From: Perna viridis
Lineage: Eukaryota
Reading direction: 5' to 3'
DNA: 64,000 bases
Assembly: GCA_037379345.1 (NCBI GenBank)
Contig: CM074517.1
Location: 20,336,001-20,400,000 of the forward strand
This document shows positions 2,459 through 64,000 of the stretch, one piece after another. The translations under genes and the position numbers were made by a program. Numbering within the stretch: the stretch's first letter is position 1; each line of letters begins with the position of its first letter. The notes under the pieces were generated by a model that searched no databases, was not told the DNA's origin, and saw nothing but the letters and a program-made list of their open reading frames with translations.

Positions 2459-2487
2459 GGAGGACATACTACTAATGAATGTTCCAA
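2459..2487 (+). CDS. 29-nt micro-exon of locus 1 (EDILLMNVP)
   Basis: ttttgtag|...|gtattg; paralogous 29-nt exon at 53231-53259 (EDILQMNVL) with synonymous changes GAC/GAT and CTA/CTT. Confidence 0.65.
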
Positions 2488-2553
2488 GTATTGATTGAGA
2501 AAACAAAATGCATTATTCATATTCTGCCTTTTTACTCTTTTGCATTTCGCAAG

Positions 2554-2580
2554 ATATTACGACTAGTATGTATGCGCTAG
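2554..2580 (+). CDS. 27-nt micro-exon of locus 1 (NITTSMYALG)
   Basis: tttcgcaag|...|gtaagt; paralog at 53327-53353; phase-1 end joins GT-ATG-ACT at 4179 in frame. Confidence 0.75.
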   Translation: MLRLVCMR

Positions 2581-5500
2581 GTAAGTACAAGTATTCCCTA
2601 TTTTCTTTAGAATTCACCATGATTTATATACCAGAATACATTTTGAAAAATTGTTATTTGCCACAATATCAAAATTAATTTTATAATCAAACAAAAACAA
2701 AGTAGCTTTTTGGCTGACATATCATAAAACTAGTCTAATCCATCGTTTATAAAATTGTCAGTTTAAGGCTATGTGTGTTTCCCCACGAAGTTGGTCAACA
2801 TATGTTTTTTTTCGAAACGTTTGAATGGTGTACAACTAAACTTGACACAAAAATTAGGACATTATTTGTGGTTATGCAACGTCTTATTAAGAAATCCAAC
2901 AATGATGCAATTCCAAAATGGCCGCTGTTTAAACTTTGAATAAAAGATCTCCAGAAGAATTACAAAATCGAATGAAATTTAATTTTAAAAAAATGGCCGG
3001 CATTATCAGTTAATCGCTGGTAAAAATTTCTAAGAATTACAAAAACAAAATTCATTGAGGCAAGCGAAGTGATTTAAAATGGTCTTGTGAAAACCGGGAA
3101 CTCGGAAACATACTGTTACGCTGTGTGTAACAATTATTTATAGTTATTATCTGCTTTTGCTATAAGAGTGCTGAATATACAAAATGTATTTTATTTAATC
3201 CTGTCATCAGATATATAGATTTAATCTTCAGTTTCATGGATAATTTTACTTGTACCTTCAAATTTCTGCCTAGATATGCACATATTACATGTTGACAGCA
3301 GTTGAAATGTCATTACATGGCCTAGCTGATAATTACAAAACTAAAGTTTTTGTGATAAGCATTATGTTGATACAAGTAAAAAGTCATTTGTGCCTGGAAT
3401 ATTGAAATACTGTCATAGGCGATAGCATAAAGAGTTTTACGGTACAATGTGATGCTTAATACGTTTAAATAGAACAGTTCTTATATAATCCACCGAATTA
3501 CAATTAAATGATATCCCTTTATTTTGTAAAAACATACGATAATAATTCATAGACAGATTGAATGGATTAGCAACATCGATTCCAAGAACATTAAAAGCGC
3601 CAATTTCATTATAGGATTAAATATATTTTGTTATCAGAATGAATCGATGTGTAAAATCAGACTATTCACTCACAAATCAAATTAAAGAGGAAACCCCATT
3701 TTTGATCCTAATAATTCCAATCTTAAACAATCTGTAAAGATACATTTCTCGTAAAAAGTTATATTGATACCTGGAATTGATATTAAAAATGGCGACATTC
3801 AACCGACATCATGACATTGTTTTCGATATTCAATTAAGATAGGGGCAACTGCATGATAACTATTTTCTTGAAAATTTGATAAAGCAGATTATTATATATT
3901 TGTTTATACATTTATTGTCTCTTTCTTTTGCCGGAGTGATGGTGTCCATATATAGTAACAACGTGCTCATATATTTTCCCACTCGTGAAAGCTTGCATCG
4001 CTGAGGTGGTAGAAGATAACTTATCAAAGTGCAAGAAAAAGACATGTGCTATCAAAATTGGATATATTGGACTTATGTATATTTCATCTTATATTTACTT
4101 TTATGGTATTAAACAAGTTCTATTTATTTTAGAGACGGCATATTAAAGAAATTACTAATTGACAAATTAAAATTCCAGGTATGACTGCAAATCCTACTTC
4201 ATCCTTCGGTAAAATTGAGAAAACAACCTCTACAAGTACAGTAGTAGAAAACTTAACAGTTAGTACACGGACATCATCAATTATAACTGGTGCATTGGTA
4301 ATATCAAGTTCCCCAGGCACAAATGAAAGATCAGGTAGAACTGATGAAACAAAAACGTATGGTAAAACACCACTTACTAAAACAATAATTATAACAGGAT
4401 ACCTACAACATCGCCTACAACAGATATGCCTTCAACGCTGAGCACAACTAAAACACCTTCAACATTAAACACCAATGACGAAACAACGTCAAGAATGCTT
4501 GAAGATTATACAACCTCCGGTACAAAAGAAAAATCTACAACATTGAGTACAATACAAATTCCTTCTACATTCAGTATATTTGACGAACCAACGTCAAGTT
4601 CAATGGTGCAGCCTACAACATCAATTAAAATACAATATTCTTCAATATCGGGTAAAACCGACGATATAATTACGTCAAGAACACCTATAGACACCACAAC
4701 TTCGAGCATAACAGAAATATCTACAACATCCAGTACTACAGAAAAAATTACAACATCAATAGTAAGTAAAACACCGACAACACCAATCATGCCTGATACG
4801 CCGACAACATCAGGAAAATCTGAAGAGACAATAACATTAAGTACAACTGAAGGAACAGCAACATCTAGTTCAGAACATACATTTTTAACCACAAGTGCAA
4901 CTGACGAAACTTCAATGTCAAGTACATTGTGAAACATCCAACATCTATAACAATGCAAACACCATCAACAACAAAAGAACAACTAATGAAACAACAATTT
5001 CAATTACAACGGTAAAGCCAACTACATACAGTACAAAACAAACAACTTCAATATCAAGTAAAATTGACGAATTCACATCCTCTAGTTCAACTTTAGAACC
5101 CGCTATACTGAGTACTGCAGACACATCTTCAAAATCAGGTAAATCTGACAAAACAACAACGTCAATATCAACAGTAACGCCTACAACATCAATTGAAATG
5201 CGATCATCTCCCACATCAGGTAAAACCGGCGATATAATTACGTCAAGAACACCTATAGAAAACACAACTTCGAGCACAAAAGAAATATCTACAATATCCA
5301 GTACTACAGACAAGACTACAACATCAATAGTAACTGAAACATCGACAGCATCAAATATGACTGATAGGCCGACAACAACAGGAAAACCTGAGGGGACAAT
5401 ACCATTAAGTACAACTGAAGGAACAGCAACATCTAGTTCAGAACATACATTTTTAACCACAAGTGCAACTGACGAAACTTCAATGTCAAGTACATTGTGA

Positions 5501-5848
5501 AACATCCAACATCTATAACAATGCAAACACCATCAACAACAAAAGAACAACAAATGAAACAACAATTTCAATTACAACAACTACATACAGTACAAAACCA
5601 ACAACTTCAATTTCAAGTAAAATTGACGAATTCACATCCTCTAGTTCAACTTTAGAACCCGCTATACTGAGTACAGCAGACACGTATTCACAATCAGGTA
5701 AATCTGACGAAACAACAACGTCAATATCAACAGAAAAGCCTAGAACATCAATAAAAATGCAATCATCTCCCATATCAGGTAAAACCGGCGGTATAATTAC
5801 GTCAAAAACACCTATAGAAAACACAACTGCCAGCACAAAAGAAATATC

Positions 5849-5973
5849 CATCAGTCATAATTGATGCTGTCGATGTTTCAGCTACTATTGATGTTGTAGT
5901 GTTTTCAGTACTACAGAAAACACTACAACATCAATAGTAGCTGAAACATCGACAGCATCAATTATGACTGATG
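5849..5973. repeat. Perfect 58-bp inverted repeat with 9-nt spacer
   Basis: 5849-5906 is the exact reverse complement of 5916-5973. Confidence 0.95.
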
Positions 5974-8609
5974 CGCCGAAAACAACAGGAAAATCTGAAG
6001 AGACAATAACATTAAGTATAACTGAAGGAACAGCAACATCTAGTTCAGTACATACATTTTTAACCACAAGTGCAACTGACGAAACTTCAATTTCAAGTAC
6101 AATTGTGAAACATCCAACATCTATAACAATGCAAACACCATCAACAACAACAAGAACAACAAATGAAACAACAATTTCAATTACAACGGTAAAGCCAACT
6201 GCATACAGTACAAAACAAACAACTTCAATATCAAGTAAAATTGACGAATTCACATCCTCTAGTTCAACTTTAGAACCCGCTATACTGAGTACAGCAGACA
6301 CGTATTCACAATCAGGTAAATCTGACGAAACAACAACGTCAATATCAACATTAAAGCCTAGAACATCAATAAAAATTCAATCATCTCCCATATCAGGTAA
6401 AACCGGCGATATAATTACGTCAAGAACACCTATGGAAAACACAACTGCCAGCACAAAAGAAATATCTACAACATCCAGTATTACAGACAAAACAACAACA
6501 TCAATAGTAACTGAAACATCGACAGCATCAAATATGACTGATACGCCGACAACAACAGGAAAACCTGAGGGGACAATACCATTAAGAACAACTGAAGGAA
6601 CAGCAACATCTAGTTCAGTACATACAACTTTAATAACTAATACAACTGACAAAACTTCAATGTCAAGTACAATTGTGCAACATCCAACATCCATAACACT
6701 GCAAACACCATCATCAACAACAAGAACAACTAATGAAACCACAGTTCCAATTGCAAAGGTAGAGCCAACTACATACAGTACAAAACAAACAACTTCAATA
6801 TCAAGTAATATTGACGAATTCACATCCTCTAGTTCAACTTTAGAACCCGTTATACATAGTACAATAGACACATATTCACAATCAGGTAAATCTGACAAAA
6901 CAACAACGTCAATATCAACAGTAACGCCTACAACATCAATTGAAATGCGATCATCTCCCACATCAGGTAAAACCGGCGATATAATTACTTCAATAACATT
7001 AAGTACAACTGAAGGAACAGCAACATCTAGTTCAGTACATACATTTTTAACCACAAGTGCAACTGACGAAACTCCAAAGTCAAGTACATTTGTGAAACAT
7101 CCAGCATTTATAACAATGCAAACACCATCAACAACAACAAGAACAACTAATGAAACAACAATTTCCATTACAACAGTACAAAACAAACAACTTCAATTTC
7201 AAGTAAAATTGACGAATTCACATCCTCTAGTTCAACTTTAGAACCCGCTATACTGAGTACAGTAGACACATATTCACAATCAGGTAAATCTGACGAAACA
7301 ACAATGTCAATATCAACAGTAAAGCCTAGAACATCAATAAAAATGCAATCATCTCCCATATTAAGTAAAACCGGCGATATAATTACGTCAAGAACACCTA
7401 TAGAAAACACAACTGCGAGCACAAAAGAAATATCTACAACATCCAGTACTACAGAAAACACTACAACATCAATAGTAGCTGAAACATCGACAGCATCAAT
7501 TATGACTGATGCGCCGAAAACAACAGGAAAATCTGAAAAGACAATAACTTTAAGTACAACTGAAGGAACAGCAACATCTAGTTCAGTACATACATTTTTA
7601 ACCACAAGTGCAACTGACGAAACTTCAATGTCAAGTACATTGTGAAACATCCAACATCTATAACAATGCAAACACCATCAACAACAACAAGAACAACAAA
7701 TGAAACAACAATTTCAATTAGAACAACTACATACAGTACAAAACCAACAACTTCAATTTCAAGTAAAATTGACGAATTCACATCCTCTAGTTCAACTTTA
7801 GAACCCGCTATACTGAGTACAGTAGACACATATTCACAATCAGGTAAATCTGACGAAACAACAATGACAATATCAACAGAAAAGCCTAGAACATCAATAA
7901 AAATGCAATCATCTCCCATATCAGGTAAAACCGGCGATATAATTACGTCAAGAACACCAATAGAAAACACAACTTCGAGGAGAAAAAAAATATTTACAAC
8001 CTCCAGTACTACAGAAAACACTACAACATCAATAGTAGCTGAAACATCGACAGCATCAATTATGACTGATGCGCCGAAAACAACAGGAAAATCTGAAGAG
8101 ACAATAACATTACGTACAACTGAAGGAACAGCAACATCTAATTCAATACATACAACTTTAACAACAAGGAACAACTGACGAAACTTCAATGTCAAGTACA
8201 ATTGTGAAACATCCAACATCCATAACACTGCAAACACCATCATCAACAACAAGAACAACTAATGAAACCACAGTTCCAATTGCAAAGGTAGAGCCATCTA
8301 CATACAGTACAAAACAAACAACTTCAATATCAAGTAAAATTGACGAATTCACATCCTCTAGTTCAACTTTAGAACCCGTTATACTGAGTACAGCTGACAC
8401 ATTTTCGAAATCAGGTAAATCTGACAAAACAACTTCAATACCAACAGTGAAGCCTACAACACCAATTAAAATGCAATCATCTCCCACATCAGGTAAACCC
8501 GACGGTATAATTACGTCAAGAACACCTATAGAAAACAAACCTTCGAGCACAAAAAAAATATCTACAACCTCCAGTACTACGGAAAACGCTACAACATCAA
8601 TAGTAGCTG

Positions 8610-9119
8610 TATCTAGTTTTGCATGTACTACATGTAGATAATTATGCTCTCAAGTGGGCACAATAACAACGTTCTGTGATGCAGCCAATTTTCCAGATTT
8701 TTTTTTCAAAAGGTGTTTTGGAAATGTTTTAGAACACCAATCACACAACTATTGAGACTTACGAAGAGGTTTTTGTAACCAATCCATTAAAAAGAAATTA
8801 AACCTTCTGTTTCTGCCTTTAATTTAGCAAAATCCAACTTGAGAAATCCTCTACCTTTGAAACAATCCAAATTTTAAACAAACCTGAAATTTTACTTCAG
8901 AGGAAAAATGGCTTGCTTGTAGGTGTTTAGCTGATACCATTTAATGGTTAAAAGATGTTCAAATTGGTCTGTTGCTTTGCGATGATGTCAAAGTTTGTAT
9001 TTATATTTCATTATGACTATGAAGTTGCTTATTAGCTAGTCTGTTGTACTTAAGTTCCTTCAAGGTCATTTAGATACATTTGAACTCTGAGCATGTCAGT
9101 CTTAATTTGATAGAAATAA
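8610..9119. other. ~510-bp non-mucin insertion in the PTS exon
   Basis: Mucin repeat stops after tagtagctg (8609) and resumes at cagtactacagaaaacactac (9120). Confidence 0.85.
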
Positions 9120-10095
9120 CAGTACTACAGAAAACACTACAACATCAATACTAGCTGAAACATCGACAGCATCAATTATGACTGATGCGCCGAAAACAAC
9201 AGGAAAATCTGAAGAGACAATAACATTGAGTACAACTGAAGGAACAGCAACATCTAGTTCAGTACATACATTTTTAACCACAAGTGCAACTGACGAAACC
9301 TCAATGTCAAGTACAATTGTGCAACAACAATCAACATCTATAACACTGCAAATACCATCAACAACAACAAGAACAACTAATGAAATAACAATTTCAATTA
9401 CAACGGTAGAGCCAACTACATACAGTACAAAACAAACAACTTCAATATCAAGTAAAATTCCCGTTCTGAAGTTTTCAGTTACTATGGAGTTCAAATATAC
9501 TGTCGATTTTAATTTGCAAGAAAAAAGTATTAAATCACAACAGCTTCGGAACAATACACATGACGCTGTAAGTATTTCCAAACTTAAACAGAGAAAGATA
9601 CGACTTTGAATGATTTTGATTGAACTGGTGTACCCTTTAAGCCTTATTTCTACGCTTTGAAAATTTTGAGTATTAACATTAATAAAATCAAATGCATTTC
9701 GAAAAAAAATGAAATGATATAAAAAAAAAATAAGCCAGGACCAAAGATTAACATAAGGGCACTTTGCTCGGAAAACTTACACAACATATGAATACAAAAG
9801 TACTCAAACGAACATATAGAAAAAAACAAACTACGCGAATTCCATTGATTGGCATGATTTCACATTCAAATGTGTCGTAAAAAAGAAACTAAAGCATTTT
9901 TTTTCCATTTTTGGTCATATCTTGGAGGTATAAGGGTACCTGAAAATCATATGTTGGTTGCTCAGTAGGAGTGCGTAGGTGGTTAAGATATCTCAGCCTA
10001 GGTACTAAATTATTTATTTGATGTACACCTATTTCATTTTTTTTTTTATGATGCAATTCAGATCTAATAAAAAATATGGCTACTTTACCATTTAG

Positions 10096-11530
10096 CTTTG
10101 GAATTTTTATAAAGGATCTGGCGAACTCGGGAAAGCATTGAAAAGTTTAACTATGATAAAACTAAGGTAGGTTATTGAACGGTATCTTTTGTTTAATTCA
10201 ACAGTAAAATATAACTATAAGAACTTTTACCATTTAAAAACTAGCAATGACAGCCGCATTCTTTTGTTTTTACTGTAATAGATTTTGTCTATTTGTTTTG
10301 ATTTATCATATTTTTTTTTAAATCTTATTTTAGTTGTCTGATCTAAGAATTGTCCCTGAAATTATTATTTTGTTTTATTTAGAACCGTTCCATTGGAACA
10401 TTCACGGAAGAAAAGGAATGCATGGCAAAGGTATTTAGAGATCAAAATTTAACTTAATTCTATAAATGTATTATTTCACATTTGTATTTTATCGTTTAAA
10501 TTTCAACTTAGAACAAAGGCACCTCTAAGAGGGGCTGTACATGCACAACATTAATCAAGGGAACACAGGTTATAACGGTAATCAAAAGAATGTAATCCAG
10601 GGACAAAGACTAGACATGGAAAACAGACATACACAACAAAGAACATAAAGTAACTAAAATCATACATACAAAGTAACAAAAGCAAATGAGCAACTCGGAC
10701 TCCACTAAAAACTGAGAGCATGGACCAGGTACACCGGTAGGGTAAGCGTCCTCTGCTTTTCTAGAAACACCCGCCGAGTTGCTCATACAAAGTCAAGTCC
10801 GGGGTAGACGAGAGAGGAAAGGAAAACTATAACACGTGGAACAAATCAGTTTTCATGGTGCAGATGAATACACCGTATCGATCCACGAGTTCATGATGGC
10901 GGCCGTAAAACTTTTGTAGTGATAACTTCAATCTTGTAGCAACATAACCCTGCTCCAGAAGCCTATTTGTTAGAATTCTAGCGCGATACAAAAAGTCTGC
11001 GTAGTCTCGGCAAGCTCTGGCATAACGTAGGAGCTGTGATATGAATACTCCATACGCATGTTTTAATTTATGAACGTAGTGTTCAGTACGGTTCTTGTAT
11101 AAAAAGTTTTTTACTTCCTAAATAAGTCAACAATTGCATTAAACTATGTTTGTATAAATAAGCGTTTTGAATATGGCATATTTATCCATTTCAACAAACA
11201 TCTAGATGCAATGTATCACAAGTAGTATATGTGATTTTTCCAGGTGTTTCCTATTAGCTGCTCATATTTTTTTTTCTAATTTGTTTGTTTGTATGTTTTT
11301 TTCTTCTTTTTTTTTGGGGGGGGGTGTTTTTTTTTTATTGTTTTGTTTTTGTTTGTTCTTGTCTTTTTTGTGATATTTTATTTCATCTTAGTAATAGCCT
11401 TTCCGTAGAATATGAAGTTGACTTCTATCAAATTTTTGGAACGACGAAGGATGTTCATGTACTTTTAAATGATGCATTCACAAATAGCAGTATCAGTATA
11501 AATGGAACGACTGTAAAGATAAATCGGTTC
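10096..11530 (+). CDS. SEA-like domain exons of locus 1 (10096-10166, 10383-10430, 11392-~11530)
   Basis: Spliced translation KFSVTMEFKYTVDFNLQEKSIKSQQLRNNTHDA|LWNFYKGSGELGKALKSLTMIKLR|TVPLEHSRKKRNAWQS|NSLSVEYEVDFYQIFGTTKDVHVLLNDAFTNSSISINGTTVKIN. Strand/helix pattern and position between the PTS domain and TM fit a SEA fold (inference). Confidence 0.7.
10551..11058 (-). mobile_element. 5'-truncated Penelope-like element, family A: RT C-terminus plus 3' UTR
   Basis: Minus-strand translation AYGVFISQLLRYARACRDYADFLYRARILTNRLLEQGYVATRLKLSLQKFYGRHHELVDRYGVFICTMKTDLFHVL*. Confidence 0.85.
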
Positions 11531-11749
11531 AGTTTTGTAATAATCGTTTCACCATTACCAGATATGCTTAAATTTTAAATCTATCTAATAAGTAACTACT
11601 ACCGAATTATAATGATCTATAATATCATTGTACTAGATAGTTCAGGAAAAATATATTTCACTAGAAAAACTGTAAGCAAAGTTCACCTTATGATACTCTC
11701 GCTCCCTCCAAAGAAAACAAATTAGAAACCCCGTCAATGATTTAAGCAT

Positions 11750-12030
11750 TCAGAAAGAAAGACAAAATAGAATGTGCACAATATAATCATACTATTACGA
11801 GTTTATGAAAATTGCATCAGCGGTTTCAAACGAGTCGACCAAGTCCAAGTTTTTCTAGGAAACCCAAAATGTCATTCAGGTGAAAAACAAAATAGGAGAT
11901 GCACAATGGCATCATGAAATAAAAAATCTGTAAAAAGTTTCATCAAATTCCATTCGGTGGTTACAAAGAGATTTTGGATTAGAAGTGAGGACGGATGAAC
12001 AGAGATACACCAAGATCACTTTATACAAAT
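11750..12030 (+). repeat. Degenerate repeat, possibly a non-autonomous Helentron-type remnant
   Basis: Two diverged units (gcacaat...agttt(c)at.aaa.t.cat.c.g.ggtt.caaa) and a ggacggatgaacag motif; classification from recall only. Confidence 0.35.
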
Positions 12031-12456
12031 GCTACTATTCATAGTCCTACTTACAAACCTTGAATTTATTAGCGTAACTTGTTTTAATCTTGATGAAATA
12101 CTTTGGTTCGATTGGCGAACAATTACTATTCCCATGTAAAAGCCTAACTAAGATCTTGAATTGCACTCAACACATTGAGGAGCAGTAAGAAATATTAAAA
12201 TACCAAGAAACAAGTATAGCAGAAAGTGTCCATGTGTCGTATAGTAGAAAGTGTCCATGTGTCGATTTCTTTTACACCATAGCATATCATATGTCAAAGC
12301 ATCTTAGCTGTAGCTTTTGTTTGCGATACACGATTCAAGCCACTGTATGCAGTAGTGTAACAAATATGAATTGTTGAAATAAAAGATACCTAGTATCTAA
12401 ACCAACGAAATATGAAATTTAAAAAATAAAAATTTATATTATTAATTAAGTTTTAG

Positions 12457-12592
12457 ATACATCAAAACTTGGATTGTATTTGGGTGTAGCATTGTTAGTA
12501 CTGGTATCAGTTGCAACTGGATTGGCTATATTTGTGAAAATACGCAAAAGGAAACAAAAACTTGTTCAACGTAACAACCTGAGATTTCAGAG
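12457..12592 (+). CDS. Transmembrane exon, copy A (TSKLGLYLGVALLVLVSVATGLAIFVKIRKRKQKLVQRNNLRFQ)
   Basis: ttttag|...|gtattg; 23-aa hydrophobic run followed by a KIRKRK stop-transfer sequence. Confidence 0.85.
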
Positions 12593-48100: not shown

Positions 48101-49905
48101 CAGGACGTAGGAAACTTATTTTTGTACTAAGTTACGATTTTTTTTGTGTTTGACGGTGTCATTAAATACCTTATATTTCAGAGATGTTTTGATATCTTGT
48201 CAACAGATTTCATTTTATTTTCGGCAAGATGACAATTTCTGGAAAGTGTGGTGTGACATCAAAACACCATATGCAGTTTTGCCTTTATTCCAACACTGAT
48301 AAATAAAAAATAACTCTCAAAAAAGGATAAATCATTACATCGGCGTTCTTTTGACAAATGCGGTAGTTATAGATTTTAACAGATATCATTTTTCATCTCG
48401 CATCCTTAGGTCATTATATCAGTGGCTAACCCTTAGGCTCGAAGAATTTTAAGCGCAGACAGATAAAGGATACGGTAAAAAAATATGCCATGTCATTATC
48501 TTTTTATCATACACTTATATAAAAGCAAAAGTATTTAACAATGTCAAATCGTATCCACAAATTTCCTCTATACCGCGTTTAAATGATTTAAAAAAAAAAC
48601 TTGAAAGATTAAGTGGACGGTTCCATCTGGTGAATGGATCACATGGTATTATTTCCCCATCATGCTCATACCATAGTCTATATCTTCTTAATCTGTCGTT
48701 TATTCCAGTGTAACGTGGGGAAGCGACCACGCATATTATGAATTAGCATCTCAAGATGCCGTTATTATTTGTTATACTATGCCCATAGACCGCTATCCTC
48801 TTTTGTTTTCGTTTCCATGAAAAGTCTTGTTAGTATTTCGTTAAAATTTATGACATAGACAAAACGAAATTTATCATCTCATCGATTTCACAAAGAAAAG
48901 ATGTTATCAGTTGTTCATAAAATTATGTTATCTTCAGATACGTTTTGCTATCGCCTTCAATGTTTTTGTTTGTGTAAGGAATGTAAAATGCATACCGATT
49001 AAAAACGGTAATGGCAGACTAACCGATTACGGATAATGCGTCGTGTGATATAAACCGGAATATATCACATGCATGATATAATCCATAAGCAGCTGATATC
49101 AAAAGTTATAGTCAAAGCAAGGCGGTTGAGGCAAGTTTGTAGATGTTATTAACAATTATATTCCTATAAGTTAACACTATCAAGAGATGTAATTATAACA
49201 TGATATTAAAAATTAAGATATAATTACAACAATATATGCATGAAATTGTTTTAACAGTAGCGATTCTAAAATAAAAAAAAAAGTTTTGTATTCGCATTTA
49301 ATTAAGCTCTTTGTGTGGTGTAAAGAAAAAGCCTAAAAGCAGAGCCGAGCAGAGCCGCAGACCTATTATGTGCAAAAAAACAGAAGTTTTGAAATTAAAT
49401 ACGCACGAAAAATGTTTGTGAACAGATAGTTACTTGTCACTTATAATAGATTTCTACCAATTGATTTTCGCACAAAGTAAATGTAAATTAAATCAGACTT
49501 TCAAAATCATTTATTGTAGTGCTTCCTATTAACCGGGAACGATATGTACTTGACATAAACAGAGAAATATCTTTATTCTGTTTAAATGAACAAAGAGACA
49601 TATTTTACTGGATGAAACCACAAACTGATAAATCTTCGGAATGGGGATTAAACCAAAGCTGGTTTTTCTTGGGATGTATACATGTCTGTTATCATAAAAA
49701 TCAAGATATGAATGCATTTTATTTATTTAAACCCCAGTTTAGACAGACATTCACTGCGTTATCTTAAAAAAAAGAAAAGACGTAAATCGGGTAAGGACAC
49801 TTTCCTTGTATCCTGGTAGCACAAAGGATAGTTTTGCTTTATATCAAATTCGGTCCTCAAAATATACTTAGTCAAATTGGCATGAATTTTGCATGATATT
49901 TCGTA

Positions 49906-50272
49906 AGAGAGTAATCAAGGGAATCAAGATTTTTGCGGAAATCAAAACGTGCAATCCAGGAAAAAGACCAGACCTTTAAAACCAGACACACATAACAAAG
50001 AACATAAAATAACCAAAAATAATACATTAAAATGTATAAACCAAACAAGTAAATGAGCAACTCGGAATCCACTAAAATAAAAATTGGGGGCATGGACCAG
50101 GTGCATTGGATTGGGGAGCGTATCCTGCCTTTCTAAAAGCACTCGCTGAGCTGCTCATAAAAAGTCCAGTCCGGGGATAGACGAAAGGGGAAAAGAAATT
50201 ATGACACGTCGAACAAATCGGTTCTCGTGGTGCATATGGATATACCGTGGTGATCTAGGAGTTCATGATAAC
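49906..50272 (-). mobile_element. Family A 3' fragment
   Basis: Reverse complement of the family A UTR (agagtaatcaaggg...gagcaactcgg...gagttcatgat). Confidence 0.8.
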
Positions 50273-51448
50273 GTCTTCATTTTTCGTAGTTTTAACTATT
50301 GTAGACACCATGTACTCAAATTTCGTAGTATGCTTTTTGAAAAACTCGGTCAGTTCTTTTTTTTGAATCCTCATTCTTACATGTATGAATTCTAGTACAC
50401 AAAATTCACTGAAGGATTTCCCAGAAAAAAAAACAGAGCAGAAGGAAGTTGCGCCTATGGTTTCAATTTTTTTGAATTTTTTTTTAAAAGGCTTGAATAG
50501 TGTCTTATTCAACTTAAAATCGATATTTAAGATAGTGAAAAGAGCAAAGGAGCCGAGTTTACCAACGTGAACGTGGTAAAAAAATGTATTCCATTACTTG
50601 TTGTTTTCATCGTATTTGGAGACTCATTCTTTTTGATCATCCATTCATCGAAATGATTGAAACGATCTGTAGTATTTTTGTAATTATATGGATGTTAAAA
50701 TCTACTTACAGGTGTAGAATCTACTTCCGATCTCGGCCGCGTTTTTACAAAATTTGCGCCAATAAAAGGTACCAGGACTAAACTTGATAGGAATTTTATT
50801 AAAGCGTTTATCAATGGGTGAAATTGAATGGTGATAAGTATTTTGATATAATTGTATTTTTTGCGTTAAGTGCCAATTTTATAAATGAGCGGCCAAAACA
50901 GGTTAAATTGCAACCTTGTCAAATGTGCAAAAGCATTTTTATCAAAGTCCGTATTAAACGACAGTGAGGCACTTGAATGTCTTTCCTCATTACTGAGAAA
51001 TATAATATAGGACAACGTTTTGAGCAACATTGCATTTGTTTTAAAGTGCATTACATCAACTGCCTTATTAAGGAATTGGGCAGGTAGTGTTATTCAAACG
51101 TACTACTTTTGACAAAGTTGAAATCCTGAACCGCATTAGGTGCTTCATGTCTACTCGCAACATCAAAACAAAACGTGAGGACTTACCTTACGTGTATTGG
51201 ATGCCAAGCAAAGACAGATATTTAGCATGATCTTCATCTTGCTCCTCGAAGGAGATATTAGGCTAAAAACCACTAATTACACTTTCCATAGGCTTCTATG
51301 CTAATTTCACAATATTCAATGGCTTCTCTGGACTTTACCTTAACTTTAACCTGCAGAGGACTATATATCAGCATGATTCTACATATGTCAGCTCACAATC
51401 CTCAGAATGTCATGTGGGGTTAGCAGACTTGCAGTGCAGTACTGGTCA

Positions 51449-51486
51449 CCGGAAGTGAAGGGTCTATAAATAGCATGGGAAATCCC
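51449..51486 (+). promoter_or_regulatory. Clustered ETS (CCGGAAGTG), TATA (TATAAATA) and kappaB (GGGAAATCCC) motifs
   Basis: Three consensus motifs within 38 bp, 1.75 kb upstream of the locus 3 micro-exons. Confidence 0.3.
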
Positions 51487-52520: not shown

Positions 52521-53230
52521 TTCAAAAATAATGAGTAATGACTGTTTTTTTGTTTTTGATATGCATGTACCAAGTCAGAACCCTTGCGGTACCAGCTGCT
52601 CCTTTGGTGTAATATCTATTCGGCCAGATTAATTTTTGACTTGACTTGTTCATTAATTGGATTTGTTGTTACCTTACTTTAAAACATTTTGATAACAGCA
52701 ATCTATTTTTTGGTAGTTAAGATTTTGTTTACTTTGGACGAATATAATGATATATATTTGCAATAACATTTTACCTACTTTAGTTAGCAAACATTTTAGA
52801 TTCCTTTGGAGTTTTGCGTCCAATGCAAAATTTCAACAAGAAAAAAATAAAAAATCAAGTTCTATTGAAATACTAACAAAATTAGCTGTAGCTATTATTG
52901 AATATGCTGTTCGGTAGATACAAATGTACATGTACAAATGATATGAACTATAATAAAGTATACACTTTTATGAGGTTATATCAAGAAAATAAGTTTGATA
53001 TAGAACCAACAACATATATTAATTTACATATTGATATATATATGGTTTGAAATGGTCTCAAAACGTATTTGTGCAATAACAGTTATAAATTAGTTAGGTC
53101 TACGACTGATGATGTATTAGATAATTCAACATTAATTCAAAGACCGAATGTTTTATGGTAGTAACGTGCTTTATGTATAACTAGTATTGTTTCTAGTACT
53201 TAAAATCATTAGCGTTTATGACTTTTGTAG

Positions 53231-53353
53231 GGAGGATATACTTCAAATGAATGTTCTCAGTATTAGTGGAGAATACAAATATGCTCTATTCATATTTTGC
53301 CTTTATACTATTTTGCATTTCGCAAGATTTTATGAATAGTCGACATGCACTTG
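53231..53353 (+). CDS. Two micro-exons of locus 3 (53231-53259, 53327-53353)
   Basis: Same lengths (29 and 27 nt), phases and flanking intron sequence as locus 1; translation EDILQMNVL|NFMNSRHALG. Confidence 0.7.
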
Positions 53354-54165
53354 GTAAGTACAACTTTTCCCTTAGACTAGACCATGATTTGAATACATTC
53401 AAACCAAACAATTAATGAAAAATAAACAAAACAATAATAAATATAAAAAAAAATACATCGTCTAGATTTTGAAAAACAAATGATCATAACCAACTCAATT
53501 TTCACCAATCTATAATCAATCTCAAAATTGATATCACTTTCGACATCCGAGATATCATGAATCATGAGACTAAATTTCCATATGCTGAAGCAGCCGTAAT
53601 ATTTCTAGATATGGACACTGATAATTTTGAAAAAAACCAAAGTTGTCGCGATTGTCATAGAGTTTAATTAAAACATTTAGTAAGGCACTCGTTCTGGCTA
53701 TAACTGAACGATACAGACGAAGTACATCTTTTGATACGATATATTAAACGTCTTTCTTTTCCATGGAAAATTTTGTTATGTCTAGAAGCTAATTAAACAG
53801 ACAAAAATATGCTGATCCGATTATAAGCGTTGTTTATAACTGGAAAGAAACTTCAGCTTTGCAACATAGCAACATCACACTATAAGACTTATTAAACACC
53901 TTCGTCTATTTTGCAATTAGACGTCTGTCGTTGGTGTCCGAAGTAATAGAATACTGTAATAAGTGATAATATAAAAAAAATTTGCGATACATTGTGACAG
54001 TTGCTACGTTTAAATACATGTTATAAAAATTACTTTTCTATATTTGATTAAATTAAACATGTCCATACTCTAATATTTATTACTGCTTCTATGACTTTTT
54101 ACCGTTCCCTTTCATTTTAGATAGCATTATCAATGAAATAAGTAACTGACAAACTTACATTTCAG

Positions 54166-57100
54166 GCATGACTTCAACAAGTTCATCAACAACTTCAACT
54201 ACAATACTCATAACATCAATTCCCAAAGAAATTCCTTCGACGATGAATAAAATAGAAGAAGCCCATACAACATCACATTCAACTCAAACTTATATAACAT
54301 TCAGTACAAAAGAGACAAATACATTATCTAATAGAACTTACGAAATCTCAATTACAAATACCACAGAAACCCCTGCAAAATCAAGTACAAATGTAAAACA
54401 ATCGAGTTCGAAAAATGAACCACCAACATCAAATAAAACTGAAACGCAAAAAACATCAAGTATCACTTCTGCAACAACAACATCATCTTTAGGAACCGGT
54501 AGAACAGAAAAATCTACAATGCCAATTACAACTCAAGAACGCAAAACATGGAGAACCAGAGAAACACCCACAACATCAGACAAAACTTATGAAGCAACCA
54601 CGTCAAATTCACTTTATAAACCAAAAATATCTTTAACCGCAGAAACACAGACATCAGGAAAACCTGAAACACATACGATGTTAATGACGACAGTGGCACC
54701 CGCCAAATCGAGTGCGACAGATTCACCTACAACACCGAGTTTCAACGAATTGACCACAAAAACGGACAGCGCTGAAACACATACAATATCAATTTCGACC
54801 GTAGAACCCACCACATCGAGTTCGACAAGTAAGCCAACAGTATCGAGACTCACGCAATCACTTACAGTTACAGGTATGACTGAAACATCAACAGTGTCAA
54901 TAACGACGGTTCAACCCACAACATCGAGTGCAACAGATTCATATACAACAGCGAGTACCACAAAAGTCACCACTGCAATGAGTAGGACTGAAATACCTGC
55001 AATGCCAATTTTGACAGGTGAGTCCACCACATCGACTTTGGAAGAAACACCTGCTTTTTCGAGTATCACAGAATCAACAGCAGAAATAGGTAAACCAACG
55101 CTGGCAGTATTAAAAATGACTGTCGAACATAAGACATCGAGTGCGACAGATACGCCTACAACACCGGGTTTTAAGGAATCAACCACAAAAACAAACAGGG
55201 CTGAAACATATACAATGTCAATTTCCACCAAAGAACCCTCCACATCGAGTTCAACAAATACACAAACAACATCCAGATCCACAGAATCACCTAGAGCAAC
55301 AGTTATGACTGACACATCTACAATGTCAATTTCAACTGAAGAACGCATCACATCGAGTTCAAAAGAAACGCTTAAAACATCGAGTACCACAGAATCAACT
55401 ACAGAAACAGATAAACCAACACTGGCAGCATTAAAATCGACCGTCGAACCCAAGACATCGAGTGCGAAAGATACAACTACACCATCGAGTTTCACAGCAT
55501 CAACCACTGCAACAGGCAGGACAGAGACACATACACTGCCAATTATAACTGAAGAGCCCAAAACATGGAGAACCAGAGAAACATCTACAACATCAGACAA
55601 AACTTACCAACCAACTGCATCAAATTCACCTTTTAAACCAAAAATATCTTTAACCACAGAAACACAGACAGCAGGAAAACCCGAAACACATACGATGTCA
55701 ATAACGACTGTGGAACCCAAAAAATCAAGTACACCAGATTCAACCACAACATCGAGTATCAAGGAATCAACCGTAAAAATGGGTTGGACTGAAACACAAA
55801 CAATGTTAATTTCGACTGAAGAAAGCACCACATCTGGTTCAAAAGAAACGTTTGAATCATCGAGTACCACAGATTCTACTACAGAAATAGATAAACCAAC
55901 ACTGGCAGCATTAAAATCGACCGTCGAACCCAAGACATCGATTGCGAAAGATACAACTACACCATCGAGTTTCACAGCATCAACCACTGCAACAGGCAGG
56001 ACAGAGACACATACACTGCCAATTATAACTGAAGAGCCCAAAACATGGAGAACCAGAGAAACACCCACAATATCAGACAAAACTTACCAACCAACTACAT
56101 CAATTTCACCTTTTCAACCAAAAATATCTCTAAACACAGAAACACAGACATCAGGAAAATCTGAAAGACACACGATGTCAAAAACGACAGTGGCACACAC
56201 AAAATCAAGTGCGACAGATTCACCTACAGCACCGGGTTTCCAGAAATCAACCACAAATACGGATAGGACTGAAACACATACAATGTCGAATTCAACCGAA
56301 GAACCCACTGCATCGACTTCGACAAATACACCAACAACATCGAGACCCACAGAATCACCTGGAGCAACAGTTATAACTGTAACATCTACAAATTCAATTT
56401 CGACTGAAGAACGCACCACATCTGGTTCGAAAGAAACGCTTGCATCATCGAATACCACAGGATCAACAGCAGAAACAGATAAACCAACACTGGCAGTATT
56501 AAAAACGACTTTCGATCATAGGACATCGAGTGAGACAGATACATATACGCCATCAAGTTCCTCAGAATCAACCACTACAATAAGCAGGACAGAGAGACAT
56601 ACACTGCAAATTACAACTGAGGAGCCCAAAACATTGAGAACCAGAGAAACATCTACAACATCAGACAAAACTTACCAATCAACTGCATCAAATTCACCTT
56701 TTAAACCAAAAATATCTTTAACCACAGAAACACAGACAGCAGGAAAACCCGAAACACATACGATGTCAATAACGACTGTGGAACCCAAAAAATCAAGTAC
56801 ACCAGATTCAACCACAACATCGAGTATCAAGGAATCAACCGTAAAAATGGGTTGGACTGAAACACAAACAATGTTAATTTCGACTGAAGAACGCACCACA
56901 TCTGGTTCAAAAGAAACGCTTGAATCATTGAGTACCACAGAATCTACTACAGAAACAGCTAAACCAACACTGGCAGCATTAAAAACGACTGTCGAACAAA
57001 GGGCATCGAGTGCGGAAGATACATATACGCCATCAAGTTCCTCAGAATCAACCGCTACAATAAGCAGGACAGAGACACATACACTGCCAATAACACCTGA

Positions 57101-60100
57101 AGAACGCAAAACATTGAGAACCAGACAAACACCCACAACATCAGACAAAATTTACGAAATAACTACGTCAAATTCATCTTATAAACCAAAACTATCTTTA
57201 ACCGCAGAAACACAGACATCAGGAAAACCTGAAACACATACGATGTTAATGACGACAATGGCACCCGCAAAATCGAGTGCGACAGATTCACCTACAACAC
57301 CGAGTTTCAAGGAATCAACCATAAAAATGGACAGCGCTGAAACACATACAATATCGATTTTGACTGAACAACCCACGACATCGAGTTCGACAAGTAAACC
57401 AACAATATCGAGACCCACAGAATCACTTACAGTTACATGTATGACTGAAACATCAACAATGTCAATAACGACGGTTCAACCCACAACATCGAGTGCAACA
57501 GATTCATATACAACAGCGAGTACCACAAAATTCACCACTGCAATGGGTAGGACTGAAATACCTGCAATGCCAATTTTGACAGGTGAGTCCACCACATCGA
57601 CTTTGGAAGAAACACCTGCTTCTTCGAGTTCCACAGAATCAACAGCAGAAACAGGTAAACCAACACTGGCAGGATTAAAAATGACTGTCGAACATAAGAC
57701 ATCGAGTGCGACAGATACGCCTACAACACCGGGTTTTAAGGAATCAACCACAAAAACGAACAGGGCTGAAACACATACAATGTCAATTTCCACCAAAGAA
57801 CCCTCCACATCGAGTTCAACAGATACACAAACAACATCCAGATCCACAGAATCACCTAGAGCAACAGTTATGACTGACACATCTACAATGTCAATGTCAA
57901 CTGAAGAACGCATCACATCGAGTTCAAAAGAAACGCTTAAAACATCGAGTACCACAGAATCTACTACAGAAACAGATAAACCAACACTGGCAGTATTAAC
58001 AACGACTGTCGAATCCAAGACATCGAGTGCGAAAAATACACCTACACCATCGAGTGCCACAGAATCAAAAACTACAACAGGCAGGACAGAGACACATACA
58101 CTACAAATTACAACTGAGGAGCCCAAAACATGGAGAACCAGAGAAACATCTACAACATCAGACAAAACTTACCAACCAACTGCATCAAATTCACCTTTTA
58201 AACCAAAAATATCTTTAACCACAGAAACACAGACAGCAGGAAAACCCGAAACACATACGATGTCAATAACGACTGTGGAACCCAAAAAATCAAGTACACC
58301 AGATTCAACCACAACATCGAGTATCAAGGAATCAACCGTAAAAATGGGTTGGACTGAAACACAAACAATGTTAATTTCGACTGAAGAAAGCACCACATCT
58401 GGTTCAAAAGAAACGCTTGAATCATCGAGTACCACAGATTCTACTACAGAAATAGATAAACCAACACTGGCAGCATTAAAATCGACCGTCGAACCCAAGA
58501 CATCGATTGCGAAAGATACAACTACACCATCGAGTTTCACAGCATCAACCACTGCAACAGGCAGGACAGAGACACATACACTGCCAATTATAACTGAAGA
58601 GCCCAAAACATGGAGAACCAGAGAAACACCCACAATATCAGACAAAACTTACCAACCAACTACATCAATTTCACCTTTTCAACCAAAAATATCTCTAAAC
58701 ACAGAAACACAGACATCAGGAAAATCTGAAAGACACACGATGTCAAAAACGACAGTGGCACACACAAAATCAAGTGCGACAGATTCACCTACAGCACCGG
58801 GTTTCCAGAAATCAACCACAAATACGGATAGGACTGAAACACATACAATGTCGAATTCAACCGAAGAACCCACTGCATCGACTTCGACAAATACACCAAC
58901 AACATCGAGACCCACAGAATCACCTGGAGCAACAGTTATAACTGTAACATCTACAAATTCAATTTCGACTGAAGAACGCACCACATCTGGTTCGAAAGAA
59001 ACGCTTGCATCATCGAATACCACAGGATCAACAGCAGAAACAGATAAACCAACACTGGCAGTATTAAAAACGACTTTCGATCATAGGACATCGAGTGAGA
59101 CAGATACATATACGCCATCAAGTTCCTCAGAATCAACCACTACAATAAGCAGGACAGAGAGACATACACTGCAAATTACAACTGAGGAGCCCAAAACATT
59201 GAGAACCAGAGAAACATCTACAACATCAGACAAAACTTACCAATCAACTGCATCAAATTCACCTTTTAAACCAAAAATATCTTTAACCACAGAAACACAG
59301 ACAGCAGGAAAACCCGAAACACATACGATGTCAATAACGACTGTGGAACCCAAAAAATCAAGTACACCAGATTCAACCACAACATCGAGTATCAAGGAAT
59401 CAACCGTAAAAATGGGTTGGACTGAAACACAAACAATGTTAATTTCGACTGAAGAACGCACCACATCTGGTTCAAAAGAAACGCTTGAATCATCGAGTAC
59501 CACAGAATCTACTACAGAAACAGCTAAACCAACACTGACAGCATTAAAAACGACTGTCGAACATAGGGCATCGAGTGCGAAAGATACATATACGCCATCA
59601 AGTTCCTCAGAATCAACCGCTACAATAAGCAGGACAGAGACACATACACTGCCAATAACACCTGAAGAACGCAAAACATTGAGAACCAGACAAACACCCA
59701 CAACATCAGACAAAATTTACGAAGTAACTACGTCAAATTCATCTTATAAACCAAAACTATCTTTAACCGCAGAAACACAGACATCCGGAAAACCTGAAAC
59801 ACATACGATGTTAATGACGACAGTGGCACCCGCAAAATCGAGTGCGACAGATTCACCTACAACACCGAGTTTCAAGGAATCAACCATAAAAATTGATAGC
59901 GCTGAAACACATACAATATCAATTTTGACTGAACAACCCACGACATCGAGTTCGACAAGTAAACCAACAAAATTCACCACTGCAATGGGTAGGACTGAAA
60001 TACCTGCAATGCCAATTTTGACAGATGAGTCCACCACATCGAGTTTGGAAGAAACACCTGCTTCTTCGAGTACCACAGAATCAACAGCAGAAACAGGTAA

Positions 60101-63100
60101 ACCAACACTGGCAGGATTAAAAATGACTGTCGAACATAAGACATCGAGTGCGACAGATACGCCTACAACACCGGGTTTTAAGGAATCAACCACAAAAACG
60201 AACAGGGCTGAAACACATACAATGTCAATTTCCACCAAAGAACCCTCCACATCGAGTTCAACAGATACACAAACAACATCCAGATCCACAGAATCACCTA
60301 GAGCAACAGTTATGACTGACACATCTACAATGTCAATGTCGACTGAAGAACGCATCACATCGAGTTCAAAAGAAACGCTTAAAACATCGAGTACCACAGA
60401 ATCTACTACAGAAACAGATAAACCAACACTGGCAGTATTAACAACGACTGTCGAATCCAAGACATCGAGTGCGAAAAAAACACCTACACCATCGAGTGCC
60501 ACAGAATCAAGAACTACAACAGGCAGGACAGAGACACATACACTACAAATTACAACTGAGGAGCCCAAAACATGGAGAACCTGGGAAACATCTACAACAT
60601 CAGACAAAACTTACCAACCAACTGCATCAAATTCACCTTTTAAACCAAAAATATCTTTAACCACAGAAACACAGACAGCAGGAAAACCCGAAACACATAC
60701 GATGTCAATAACGACTGTGGCACCCAAAAAATCGAGTACACCAGATTCAACCACAACATCGAGTATCAATGAATCAACCGCAAAAATGGGTTGGACTGAA
60801 ACACAAACAATGTTAATTTCGACTGAAGAAAGCACCACATCTGGTTCAAAAGAAACGCTTGAATCATCGAGTACCACAGATTCTACTACAGAAATAGATA
60901 AACCAACACTGGCAGCATTAAAATCGACCGTCGAACCCAAGACATCGAGTGCGAAAGATACAACTACACCATCGAGTTTCACAGCATCAACCACTGCAAC
61001 AGGCAGGACAGAGACACATACACTGCCAATTATAACTGAAGAGCCCAAAACATGGAGAACCAGAGAAACACCCACAATATCAGACAAAACTTACCAACCA
61101 ACTACATCAATTTCACCTTTTCAACCAAAAATATCTCTAAACACAGAAACACAGACATCAGGAAAATCTGAAAGACACACGATGTCAAAAACGACAGTGG
61201 CACACACAAAATCAAGTGCGACAGATTCACCTACAGCACCGGGTTTCCAGAAATCAACCACAAATACGGATAGGACTGAAACACATACAATGTCGAATTC
61301 AACCGAAGAACCCACTGCATCGACTTCGACAAATACACCAACAACATCGAGACCCACAGAATCACCTGGAGCAACAGTTATAACTGTAACATCTACAAAT
61401 TCAATTTCGACTGAAGAACGCACCACATCTGGTTCGAAAGAAACGCTTGCATCATCGAATACCACAGGATCAACAGCAGAAACAGATAAACCAACACTGG
61501 CAGTATTAAAAACGACTTTCGATCATAGGACATCGAGTGAGACAGATACATATACGCCATCAAGTTCCTCAGAATCAACCACTACAATAAGCAGGACAGA
61601 GAGACATACACTGCAAATTACAACTGAGGAGCCCAAAACATTGAGAACCAGAGAAACATCTACAACATCAGACAAAATTTACCAATCAACTGCATCAAAT
61701 TCACCTTTTAAACCAAAAATATCTTTAACCACAGAAACACAGACAGCAGGAAAACCCGAAACACATACGATGTCAATAACGACTGTGGAACCCAAAAAAT
61801 CAAGTACACCAGATTCAACCACAACATCGAGTATCAAGGAATCAACCGTAAAAATGGGTTGGACTGAAACACAAACAATGTTAATTTCGACTGAAGAACG
61901 CACCACATCTGGTTCAAAAGAAACGCTTGAATCATCGAGTACCACAGAATCTACTACAGAAACAGCTAAACCAACACTGGCAGCATTAAAAACGACTGTC
62001 GAACATAGGGCATCGAGTGCGGAAGATACATATACGCCATCAAGTTCCTCAGAATCAACCGCTACAATAAGCAGGACAGAGACACATACACTGCCAATAA
62101 CACCTGAAGAACGCAAAACATTGAGAACCAGACAAACACCCACAACATCAGACAAAATTTACGAAATAACTACGTCAAATTCATCTTATAAACCAAAACT
62201 ATCTATAACCGCAGAAACACAGACATCAGGAAAACCTGAAACACATACGATGTTAATGACGACAATGGCACCCGCAAAATCGAGTGCGACAGATTCACCT
62301 ACAACACCGAGTTTCAAGGAATCAACCATAAAAATGGACAGCGCTGAAACACATACAATATCGATTTTGACTGAACAACCCACGACATCGAGTTCGACAA
62401 GTAAACCAACAATATCGAGACCCACAGAATCACTTACAGTTACAGGTATGACTGAAACATCAACAATGTCAATAACGACGGTTCAACCCACAACATCGAG
62501 TGCAACAGATTCATATACAACAGCGAGTACCACAAAATTCACCACTGCAATGGGTAGGACTGAAATACCTGCAATGCCAATTTTGACAGGTGAGTCCACC
62601 ACATCGACTTTGGAAGAAACACCTGCTTCTTCGAGTTCCACAGAATCAACAGCAGAAACAGGTAAACCAACACTGGCAGGATTAAAAATGACTGTCGAAC
62701 ATAAGACATCGAGTGCGACAGATACGCCTACAACACCGGGTTTTAAGGAATCAACCACAAAAACGAACAGGGCTGAAACACATACAATGTCAATTTCCAC
62801 CAAAGAACCCTCCACATCGAGTTCAACAGATACACAAACAACATCCAGATCCACAGAATCACCTAGAGCAACAGTTATGACTGACACATCTACAATGTCA
62901 ATGTCGACTGAAGAACGCATCACATCGAGTTCAAAAGAAACGCTTAAAACATCGAGTACCACAGAATCAACTACAGAAACAGATAAACCAACACTGGCAG
63001 TATTAACAACGACTGTCGAATCCAAGACATCGAGTGCGAAAAATACACCTACACCATCGAGTGCCACAGAATCAAGAACTACAACAGGCAGGACAGAGAC

Positions 63101-64000
63101 ACATACACTACAAATTACAACTGAGGAGCCCAAAACATGGAGAACCAGAGAAACATCTACAACATCAGACAAAACTTACCAACCAACTGCATCAAATTCA
63201 CCTTTTAAACCAAAAATATCTTTAACCACAGAAACACAGACAGCAGGAAAACCCGAAACACATACGATGTCAATAACGACTGTGGAACCCAAAAAATCAA
63301 GTACACCAGATTCAACCACAACATCGAGTATCAAGGAATCAACCGTAAAAATGGGTTGGACTGAAACACAAACAATGTTAATTTCGACTGAAGAAAGCAC
63401 CACATCTGGTTCAAAAGAAACGTTTGAATCATCGAGTACCACAGATTCTACTACAGAAATAGATAAACCAACACTGGCAGCATTAAAATCGACCGTCGAA
63501 CCCAAGACATCGATTGCGAAAGATACAACTACACCATCGAGTTTCACAGCATCAACCACTGCAACAGGCAGGACAGAGACACATACACTGCCAATTATAA
63601 CTGAAGAGCCCAAAACATGGAGAACCAGAGAAACACCCACAATATCAGACAAAACTTACCAACCAACTACATCAATTTCACCTTTTCAACCAAAAATATC
63701 TCTAAACACAGAAACACAGACATCAGGAAAATCTGAAAGACACACGATGTCAAAAACGACAGTGGCACACACAAAATCAAGTGCGACAGATTCACCTACA
63801 GCACCGGGTTTCCAGAAATCAACCACAAATACGGATAGGACTGAAACACATACAATGTCGAATTCAACCGAAGAACCCACTGCATCGACTTCGACAAATA
63901 CACCAACAACATCGAGACCCACAGAATCACCTGGAGCAACAGTTATAACTGTAACATCTACAAATTCAATTTCGACTGAAGAACGCACCACATCTGGTTC
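54166..64000 (+). CDS. Giant Thr/Ser-rich mucin exon of locus 3, open to the window end (>3270 codons)
   Basis: Acceptor catttcag|GC ATG ACT at 54165. The ATG at 54168 and the codons at the window end are in the same frame. The ORF track lists no terminated ORF in this frame, consistent with no stop before the window end. Confidence 0.9.
54621..64000 (+). repeat. Higher-order coding tandem repeat, 2565-bp (855-aa) unit, ~3.7 copies, one unit 2442 bp
   Basis: Antisense ORFs recur at +2565, +2442, +2565 (55604, 58169, 60611, 63176). PK(I/L)SL subunits spaced 1017/480/588/480 bp. Confidence 0.95.

Follow-up and report, generated by a model that had tools for sequence, protein, structure and literature searches.

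A birth-and-death cluster of likely SEA-type membrane mucins in Perna viridis, with two broken copies and an inherited nine-residue seed

The 64,000-nucleotide window analysed here (Perna viridis, assembly GCA_037379345.1, contig CM074517.1, positions 20,336,001 to 20,400,000) holds a tandem cluster of three paralogous genes, loci 1, 2 and 3, which probably encode single-pass membrane mucins. Two of them, loci 1 and 2, are broken in this sequence, locus 3 stays open as far as the edge of the window, and the proline-, threonine- and serine-rich exons (PTS exons) of all three are built from one 27-nt monomer under differing higher-order repeats. The exons of locus 1 chain in consistent phase at every junction save one. 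It is read as a birth-and-death cluster, likely of SEA-type membrane mucins, in which two copies are broken and a 9-residue seed has been inherited. The window is AT-rich, with spliceosomal introns, a GC content of 27 to 42% per kb and a strong skew at 4-9.5 kb and 54-64 kb; an Rfam search of it gave 0 matches.

Paralogous PTS exons and their common monomer

The PTS exons of the three loci, with the copies and insertions that they contain, are the following:

4179-9567, + strand: locus 1 PTS exon, 5389 nt, broken, about 8.5 x 570-bp units, its last part (9457-9567) encoding strand 1 and helix 1 of the SEA-like domain
5849-5904, - strand: fold-back inverted repeat copy inside the locus 1 PTS exon, up to 97% identical to the reverse strand of other units
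8610-9118, no strand assigned: non-PTS insertion of 509 bp in the locus 1 PTS exon, with stops in all six frames
35062-35652, + strand: locus 2 relic PTS exon, 591 nt, with a stop at 35358, a frameshift near 35480, a 1-nt deletion near 35567 within its SEA-like start, and the phase-0 donor kept
54166-64000, + strand: locus 3 PTS exon, more than 9835 nt, with an open frame of 3277 codons that runs up to the window end
54501-57065 (A), 57066-59630 (B), 59631-62072 (C, with a 123-nt in-frame deletion) and 62073 onward (D): higher-order copies of the locus 3 repeat

The 120 nt located 5' of the three PTS-exon acceptors are homologous in each pairing, at about 60% identity (76/127, 76/123 and 78/129 identical positions), a score reached by 0 of 1000 random pairs, and between loci 1 and 2 the intron homology spans about 470 nt (E 1e-15). 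The initial annotation had described three co-oriented paralogs sharing a cag/GyATGACT acceptor. The acceptors are indeed homologous and all on the forward strand, but the motif by itself is no acceptor signature: CAGG[CT]ATGACT occurs five times in the window, always on the forward strand, at the PTS-exon acceptors (4176, 35059 and 54163) and twice inside the locus 3 repeat (54871 and 62443). Additionally, an upstream block and the first coding exon are common to loci 1 and 3, and loci 1 and 2 have in common the SEA-like start, SEA-like exon 4, the transmembrane (TM) exon and the first tail exon.

The PTS exons had been described as differing completely, which does not hold at the level of the base monomer, since one 27-nt, 9-residue unit, in the same register and including the serine codon class, is common to all three loci. 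The serine plus threonine content is 47, 39 and 45% and the proline content 4.9, 4.5 and 6.5% in loci 1, 2 and 3, respectively, with a single cysteine in locus 3; human mucins contain 25-52% serine/threonine (PMC13345508). The residue autocorrelation at lag 9 has a z of 10.4 in locus 1, 6.4 in locus 3 and 2.1 in locus 2, with peaks at 9 and its multiples in loci 1 and 3. Two cyclic 27-nt models, one trained on each of these loci, arrive at x-[TP]-T-T-S-S-T-T-E (correlation 0.77, 1/5000 permutations), and their cross-scores top all column-permuted and codon-shuffled controls (100/100 for loci 1 and 3, 200/200 for locus 2). With protein-only models the register is unchanged; the serine of position 4 is then encoded by TCN in 107/108 cases in locus 1 and 54/56 in locus 3, and the serine of position 5 by AGY in 74/75 and 24/26, respectively. 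Such common serine codon classes in one register would not be fixed by protein-level convergence.

Threonine/serine low-complexity repeats do converge easily, and a direct blastn of locus 1 against locus 3 reached only E ~1e-4. Against this stand the identical serine codon classes in the same register and an AGY position with the same one-step neighbours (Gly, Ile) in both loci, so that a convergent origin of the 9-residue unit, from similar amino-acid demands, appears highly improbable. A test of serine class over all nine positions, to which positions with almost no serine add noise, was not significant (r 0.59, P 0.22) and speaks against the common seed. Above the monomer, the claim of independently rebuilt repeat domains is borne out, as a 21-mer in locus 1 versus a 95-mer in locus 3. 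The 570-bp unit of locus 1 was verified (copies 89-96% identical) and corresponds to 21.1 monomers. The 2565-bp unit of locus 3 was also verified (identity 96.4-99.7%, with one copy of 2442 bp), and its 1017+480+588+480 bp correspond to exactly 95 x 27 nt. On this reading each locus built its higher-order repeat independently, from a 27-nt seed that was inherited.

Reading frames, lesions and signal-peptide exons

Locus 3 is under frame selection, having 0 stops in its PTS exon versus 8.0 expected and sub-unit gaps that are all multiples of 3; the dN/dS (ratio of nonsynonymous to synonymous rates) of its repeat copies is 0.7-1.0. When 54501-55500 is compared with the later copies, most divergence lies where the array begins on its 5' side, with 41 mismatches over the initial 500 bp and 0-3 per 500 bp beyond 1500, as expected from unequal crossing-over. 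Mucin rods measure about 0.25 nm per residue, which would give the locus 3 rod a length above 0.8 micrometre. The locus 3 C-terminus lies beyond the window end (64000), and the window holds nothing of this gene past the PTS exon; it could accordingly be read as a secreted or differently anchored mucin with only the signal exon and PTS start in common with locus 1. This seems unlikely, as SEA-like, TM and tail exons are present in both other paralogs, and locus 3 has in common with locus 1 not only the upstream block and the signal exon but also the intron and the monomer.

When the locus 1 PTS exon is joined to its signal exon, the first frameshift is near 4390 and a stop follows after 111 codons, at 4439. 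The exon carries 10 lesions from about seven events, with frameshifts throughout; in addition to the frameshift near 4390, these include two recurrent 1-nt deletions (one identical in 3/7 units covering the site, the second in 2/7), the fold-back inversion, a 19-nt deletion, a 1-nt insertion and the 509-bp insertion. The latter was considered as an intron and rejected, having by eye no GT-AG pair of matching phase. Nevertheless, the PTS frame of locus 1 has 0 nonsense among at least 119 substitutions versus 4.3 expected (P 0.014), which suggests that its units diverged under selection and that the common deletions spread later by recombination. The same absence of nonsense substitutions, together with open signal, SEA-like, TM and tail exons with GT-AG ends and the fact that several lesions are 1-nt indels, would suit a functional locus 1 whose frameshifts arose as errors when an A-rich repeat was assembled, or a null allele, other individuals having the gene intact. 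Assembly errors fit poorly with a similar repeat in locus 3 that has 0 frame errors in 9.8 kb and with identical deletions recurring among related units, and the fold-back inversion, 19-nt deletion, 509-bp insertion and duplicated TM exon are atypical of consensus errors. A functional locus 1 is for these reasons considered improbable, though this copy may be a null allele, and the gene is treated below as broken.

The following features precede the PTS exons of loci 1 and 3:

1594-1875, no strand assigned: non-coding block 5' of locus 1, homologous to 50358-50632 (64% over 293 columns, core blastn E 7e-9)
2459-2580, + strand: locus 1 signal-peptide exon, 122 nt, ATG at 2508, phase-1 donor
50358-50632, no strand assigned: locus 3 upstream block, homologous to 1594-1875
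53231-53353, + strand: locus 3 signal-peptide exon, 123 nt, ATG at 53281, phase-1 donor

The upstream block is a candidate promoter or untranslated first exon, and nhmmer found no third copy of it in the window. The signal-peptide exons had been annotated as 29- and 27-nt micro-exons common to loci 1 and 3. The pieces exist, with AG/GT borders and an in-frame join (computed for locus 1; the open frame of locus 3 was read off the sequence), but a single exon of 122/123 nt is the better model, because the stretch between the pieces is the part conserved best, encodes a hydrophobic peptide and is bordered by weak internal donors. From the ATG, 41/46 positions of this stretch are conserved, versus about 80% in the 29-nt piece, 18/27 in the 27-nt piece and 58-65% in the true flanking introns. 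The exon, of 24 codons, encodes a signal-like peptide (8-residue hydropathy 2.65 and 3.19; a heuristic estimate, made without SignalP) that in both loci ends in A-L-G at the phase-1 junction. On an approximate matrix, the internal donors score 2.0 and -2.7 bits versus 10.9 and 8.8 for the outer ones. The spread of changes over codon positions (4/5/5) gives the coding reading no support by itself. Two micro-exons separated by 66 nt of intron, in a gene whose signal peptide would be encoded farther upstream, would be compatible with the AG/GT borders, the open join of locus 1 and internal acceptors scoring 4.3 and 2.7; however, these acceptors are AAG, the supposed intron would be the best-conserved part and the place where the sole hydrophobic peptide is encoded, and no other signal exon was identified, which makes that parse very unlikely. 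Upstream ATGs are present in both signal-exon leaders (2475-2500 and 53247-53253), of which one, at 53251, is in frame in locus 3 and would add 10 residues.

Juxtamembrane, transmembrane and tail exons

Downstream of its PTS exon, locus 1 has the following features:

10096-10166, + strand: SEA-like exon 2, phase 0 to 2, acceptor 5.2 and donor 10.5 bits
10383-10430, + strand: SEA-like exon 3, phase 2 to 2, carrying RKKR
11392-11536, + strand: SEA-like exon 4, with its 3' end at 11512 or 11536
12457-12592, + strand: TM exon, 19-residue hydropathy 2.65, then a basic stop-transfer
13788-14454, + strand: recent duplicate of 12337-13017, 95% identical, holding a second TM exon (13908-14043)
14961-15109, + strand: tail exon 1, Tyr-rich
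15536-15600, + strand: tail exon 2
16290-16347, + strand: tail exon 3, with a hydrophobic-x-I-K-R-P-x-hydrophobic motif
16965-17532, + strand: putative last exon, its stop completed across the junction, AATAAA at 17527

Joined in phase, the SEA-like exons of locus 1 give about 120 residues in which strand and helix moments alternate, and they have RKKR, a furin-type site, in the middle loop at residue 70; the modelled domain has no match to GS[VI]VV. A SEA variant with Rx[KR]R in the loop that joins strands 2 and 3 has been described (PMC13566292, which cites Pei and Grishin 2017), and work on yeast Msb2 indicates that SEA domains can elude sequence detection (bioRxiv 10.64898/2026.05.06.723240). 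The juxtamembrane domain is SEA-like by pattern (length, position and order of strands and helices), Pfam and fold searches of single exons having failed to confirm it, and the annotated PTS-SEA-TM-tail layout is retained for locus 1 as signal, PTS, juxtamembrane domain, TM and tail, the SEA identity being pattern-level only. Linked in phase, the TM exon and the four tail exons yield a tail of 108 residues that contains 11 Tyr and two YxN, motifs on which the proposed label of signalling mucin would rest.

Locus 2 has, in addition to its PTS exon, three relics:

36431-36520, + strand: remnant of SEA-like exon 4 with a frameshift close to the start (score 84 versus 40-45 in 5 shuffles)
38461-38559, + strand: relic TM exon, homology lost before the donor
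40106-40242, + strand: remnant of tail exon 1, its protein 47% identical to that of locus 1

The 3' end of the locus 2 PTS exon aligns to the SEA-like start of locus 1 with a score reached by 0/1000 shuffles. The TM and tail exons said to be shared by loci 1 and 2 were recovered as the TM and first tail exon, but the locus 2 matches end before the donors, and nhmmer did not find the later tail exons (2 and 3), nor a locus 2 signal exon, upstream block or SEA exons 2-3. A candidate for SEA exon 2 of locus 2 (35780-35880) has good splice sites and phase, but is without detectable similarity and is not assigned here. The segments 33022-33135 and 33299-33706 have a weak match (E 0.012) to the DNA 5' of the locus 3 signal exon and adjoin a repeat shared with 23603-23986; the lost signal exon of locus 2 may have stood in this region (33022-33706).

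Several results weigh against a conserved SEA-type membrane mucin, as does the position of the locus 3 C-terminus beyond the window. From SEA-like exon 4 to the TM exon of locus 1 there is no good phase-1 donor, and no linking exon was found. RKKR occurs by chance in 993/50000 shuffles of the domain. Pfam SEA had no match for single exons, either in 11 pieces with an E limit of 1 or in 6 pieces with a limit of 10, a search of little power with single-exon fragments of 21-56 residues. AlphaFold models the first 38-residue piece as a single long helix where a strand was expected, and the predicted fold of the last juxtamembrane piece is a helix plus hairpin (predicted local distance difference test, pLDDT, of 59). 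For this last piece, Foldseek gave no match at E 0.001 or better, and VIA gave Z 2-3.2 among the 50 matches listed, none of them a MUC1-type SEA. Furthermore, the comparison does not demonstrate a scaffold conserved by selection: the pooled dN/dS of loci 1 and 2 is 0.73 over 104 codons, with a 95% confidence interval (0.42-1.27) that includes 1, the SEA start (0.84) and candidate locus 2 exon 2 (1.23) having been left out for their uncertain alignments.

By title, 16 of the 50 listed VIA matches are HMA-type and one is a dystroglycan juxtamembrane domain, all with a Z of 2.1-2.8, too low to count. PDB sequence searches gave a best E of 0.4-1.3 or none. In the ESM Atlas, SEA-like exon 4 retrieved bacterial clusters of 46-56 aa at 0.91-0.92, rejected as recognition was below threshold. 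The juxtamembrane region could therefore be another small alpha/beta module, in membrane mucins of separate origin, which would account for the unmatched Pfam, PDB-sequence and Foldseek searches, the helix-only model of the first piece and the missing GS[VI]VV. The length of about 120 residues, the position and the alternating strand/helix pattern fit SEA, however, and a SEA-like domain is preferred here, the alternative being a minority possibility. As a separate observation, the 220-nt stretch 5' of the TM exon, homologous between loci 1 and 2, contains a 25-bp tandem duplication (12214-12264) and may hide the missing linker exon.

Among other elements of the window, 31063-31356 (- strand, with a relic to ~31900) is a broken transposon fragment in which Pfam recognises the core domain of an integrase (rva_4, E 7e-17), and the degenerate region ~43100-45200 (+ strand) reads by eye like a relic of a long interspersed nuclear element (LINE) reverse transcriptase, although Pfam gave no reverse-transcriptase match on 2 fragments. 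An interspersed repeat of about 350 bp is present in both orientations with 69-93% identity (1221-1596, 10552-10910, 24182-24495, 25663-26049, 29336-29661 and 49908-50273, partially at 17674-17775). Five old copies of a non-coding element, all on the same strand, lie 5' of loci 2 and 3 (24857-25125, 28252-28654, 45405-45492, 47192-47673 and 49513-49847) and may be an old repeat or a duplicated regulatory module; no consistent frame was found in these five ~350-bp repeats (3/5 copies translated). Imperfect inverted repeats, possibly relics of miniature inverted-repeat transposable elements, are located at 16419-16608, 39207-39474 and 45594-45710.

Known mucins and proposed evolution of the cluster

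No homologue of the tail exon was found in a library of 87-2000 aa proteins, nor any of the locus 3 PTS among proteins of 1802-5735 aa, with 7997 candidates scored, or of 30-1801 aa, with 7999. A tail profile run against 1.84 billion representatives gave three matches (E 4e-6 to 1e-3), one Bacteroidia protein and two that by eye resemble tetratricopeptide repeats, rejected as chance sums of several stretches on repeat proteins. This absence of homologues is weak evidence, because the libraries may lack the lineage; the claims that the family is lineage-specific and was missed by annotation fit the four empty library searches. Among the papers listed by the literature searches none describes this mucin family, though supplementary tables may list such proteins.

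The tail of locus 1 carries an I[KQ]RP-type motif, which is conserved in MUC3 and MUC12. It is located 17 residues from the end and resembles the C-terminal peptide of MUC17 (PMC6705488). The extended pattern, set post hoc from this one MUC17 peptide, has its sole six-frame match in the window at 16290 and occurred in 7/200000 shuffled tails. The human genes MUC3A, MUC3B, MUC12 and MUC17 (7q22) are likewise tandem paralogs with a single giant PTS exon, ends kept better than the PTS, and assembly gaps (PMC9578598, PMC13643018). As in this cluster, the three loci are tandem paralogs, with one large PTS exon after the signal exon (loci 1 and 3), then TM and tail (locus 1, with relics in locus 2), SEA here being pattern-level. 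Unlike it, the modelled domain of locus 1 is without the GS[VI]VV motif (defined in PMC13643018) and has RKKR in place, two of the three copies are broken, and sequence homology is not demonstrated. Moreover, no EGF exon was found, the four locus 1 juxtamembrane exons contain 0 Cys, the SEA-TM junction of the broken gene is incomplete, and the modelled tail ends in Thr and has no class I PDZ end, which depends on the last, putative splice. Membership has been judged by SEA phylogeny grouping with mammalian mucins, or by synteny (PMC1552070).

Other architectures are also comparable. The MUC1 tail is Tyr-rich, as is that of locus 1. Signal, PTS, SEA and TM without EGF are found in MUC1 and in the mucin1-like protein of the sea anemone Actinia (PMC9080433), but MUC1 is a single gene with a short variable-number tandem repeat unit and an autoproteolytic SEA (PMC13643018, PMC13345508), whereas a tandem cluster with kilobase higher-order repeats is present here. 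In Notch receptors and fibrocystin the SEA is of the furin type, its ferredoxin-like fold having Rx[KR]R in the loop that joins strands 2 and 3 (PMC13566292), as RKKR would be placed in the candidate fold of locus 1; their ectodomains are EGF/LNR or TIG/G8, in contrast to the PTS rod of locus 1. Fungal Msb2 also combines a mucin rod, a divergent juxtamembrane SEA found only by structure, protease processing and a signalling tail (bioRxiv 10.64898/2026.05.06.723240), although it belongs to another kingdom, is processed by yapsin, and homology is not shown.

It is proposed here that the signal exon of a working copy would take the protein into the endoplasmic reticulum, and that its Ser/Thr-rich rod would be O-glycosylated and project from the cell as glycocalyx. 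A furin-type convertase, rather than autoproteolysis, would cut the SEA-like module at RKKR, giving a sheddable rod on a TM stub with the Tyr-rich tail. Through unequal crossing-over, entire genes would be duplicated and every array built anew out of the 27-nt monomer; the first copy to die would have been locus 2, followed by locus 1 once most of its 570-bp units had diverged, the locus 1 array recombining afterwards. The tandem duplication with gene death put forward by the initial annotation is corroborated by pseudogene relics of different ages among the tandem paralogs, and two broken copies out of three indicate a stronger turnover than had been stated.

More tentatively, and with rather low probability, the cluster could be a true invertebrate homologue of the vertebrate MUC3/12/17 cluster, with the I[KQ]RP tail motif coming from a bilaterian ancestor and a furin-cleaved SEA of the Notch/fibrocystin type replacing self-cleavage; such glycocalyx mucins would then predate vertebrates and turn over by whole-gene replacement. 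The surprise is limited, because tandem membrane mucins with conserved ends and a volatile PTS exon are already known in vertebrates. What the window offers is a nucleotide-level record of the rebuilding of a giant mucin domain, in which one 27-bp seed has given 21-mer and 95-mer arrays in sister genes, with one copy under frame selection and another with frameshifts spread through its array. Provided that both the SEA-like fold and the tail motif prove correct, the range of MUC3/17-type glycocalyx mucins, here with a furin-type site, would extend to an invertebrate cluster of which the library and literature searches gave no description.

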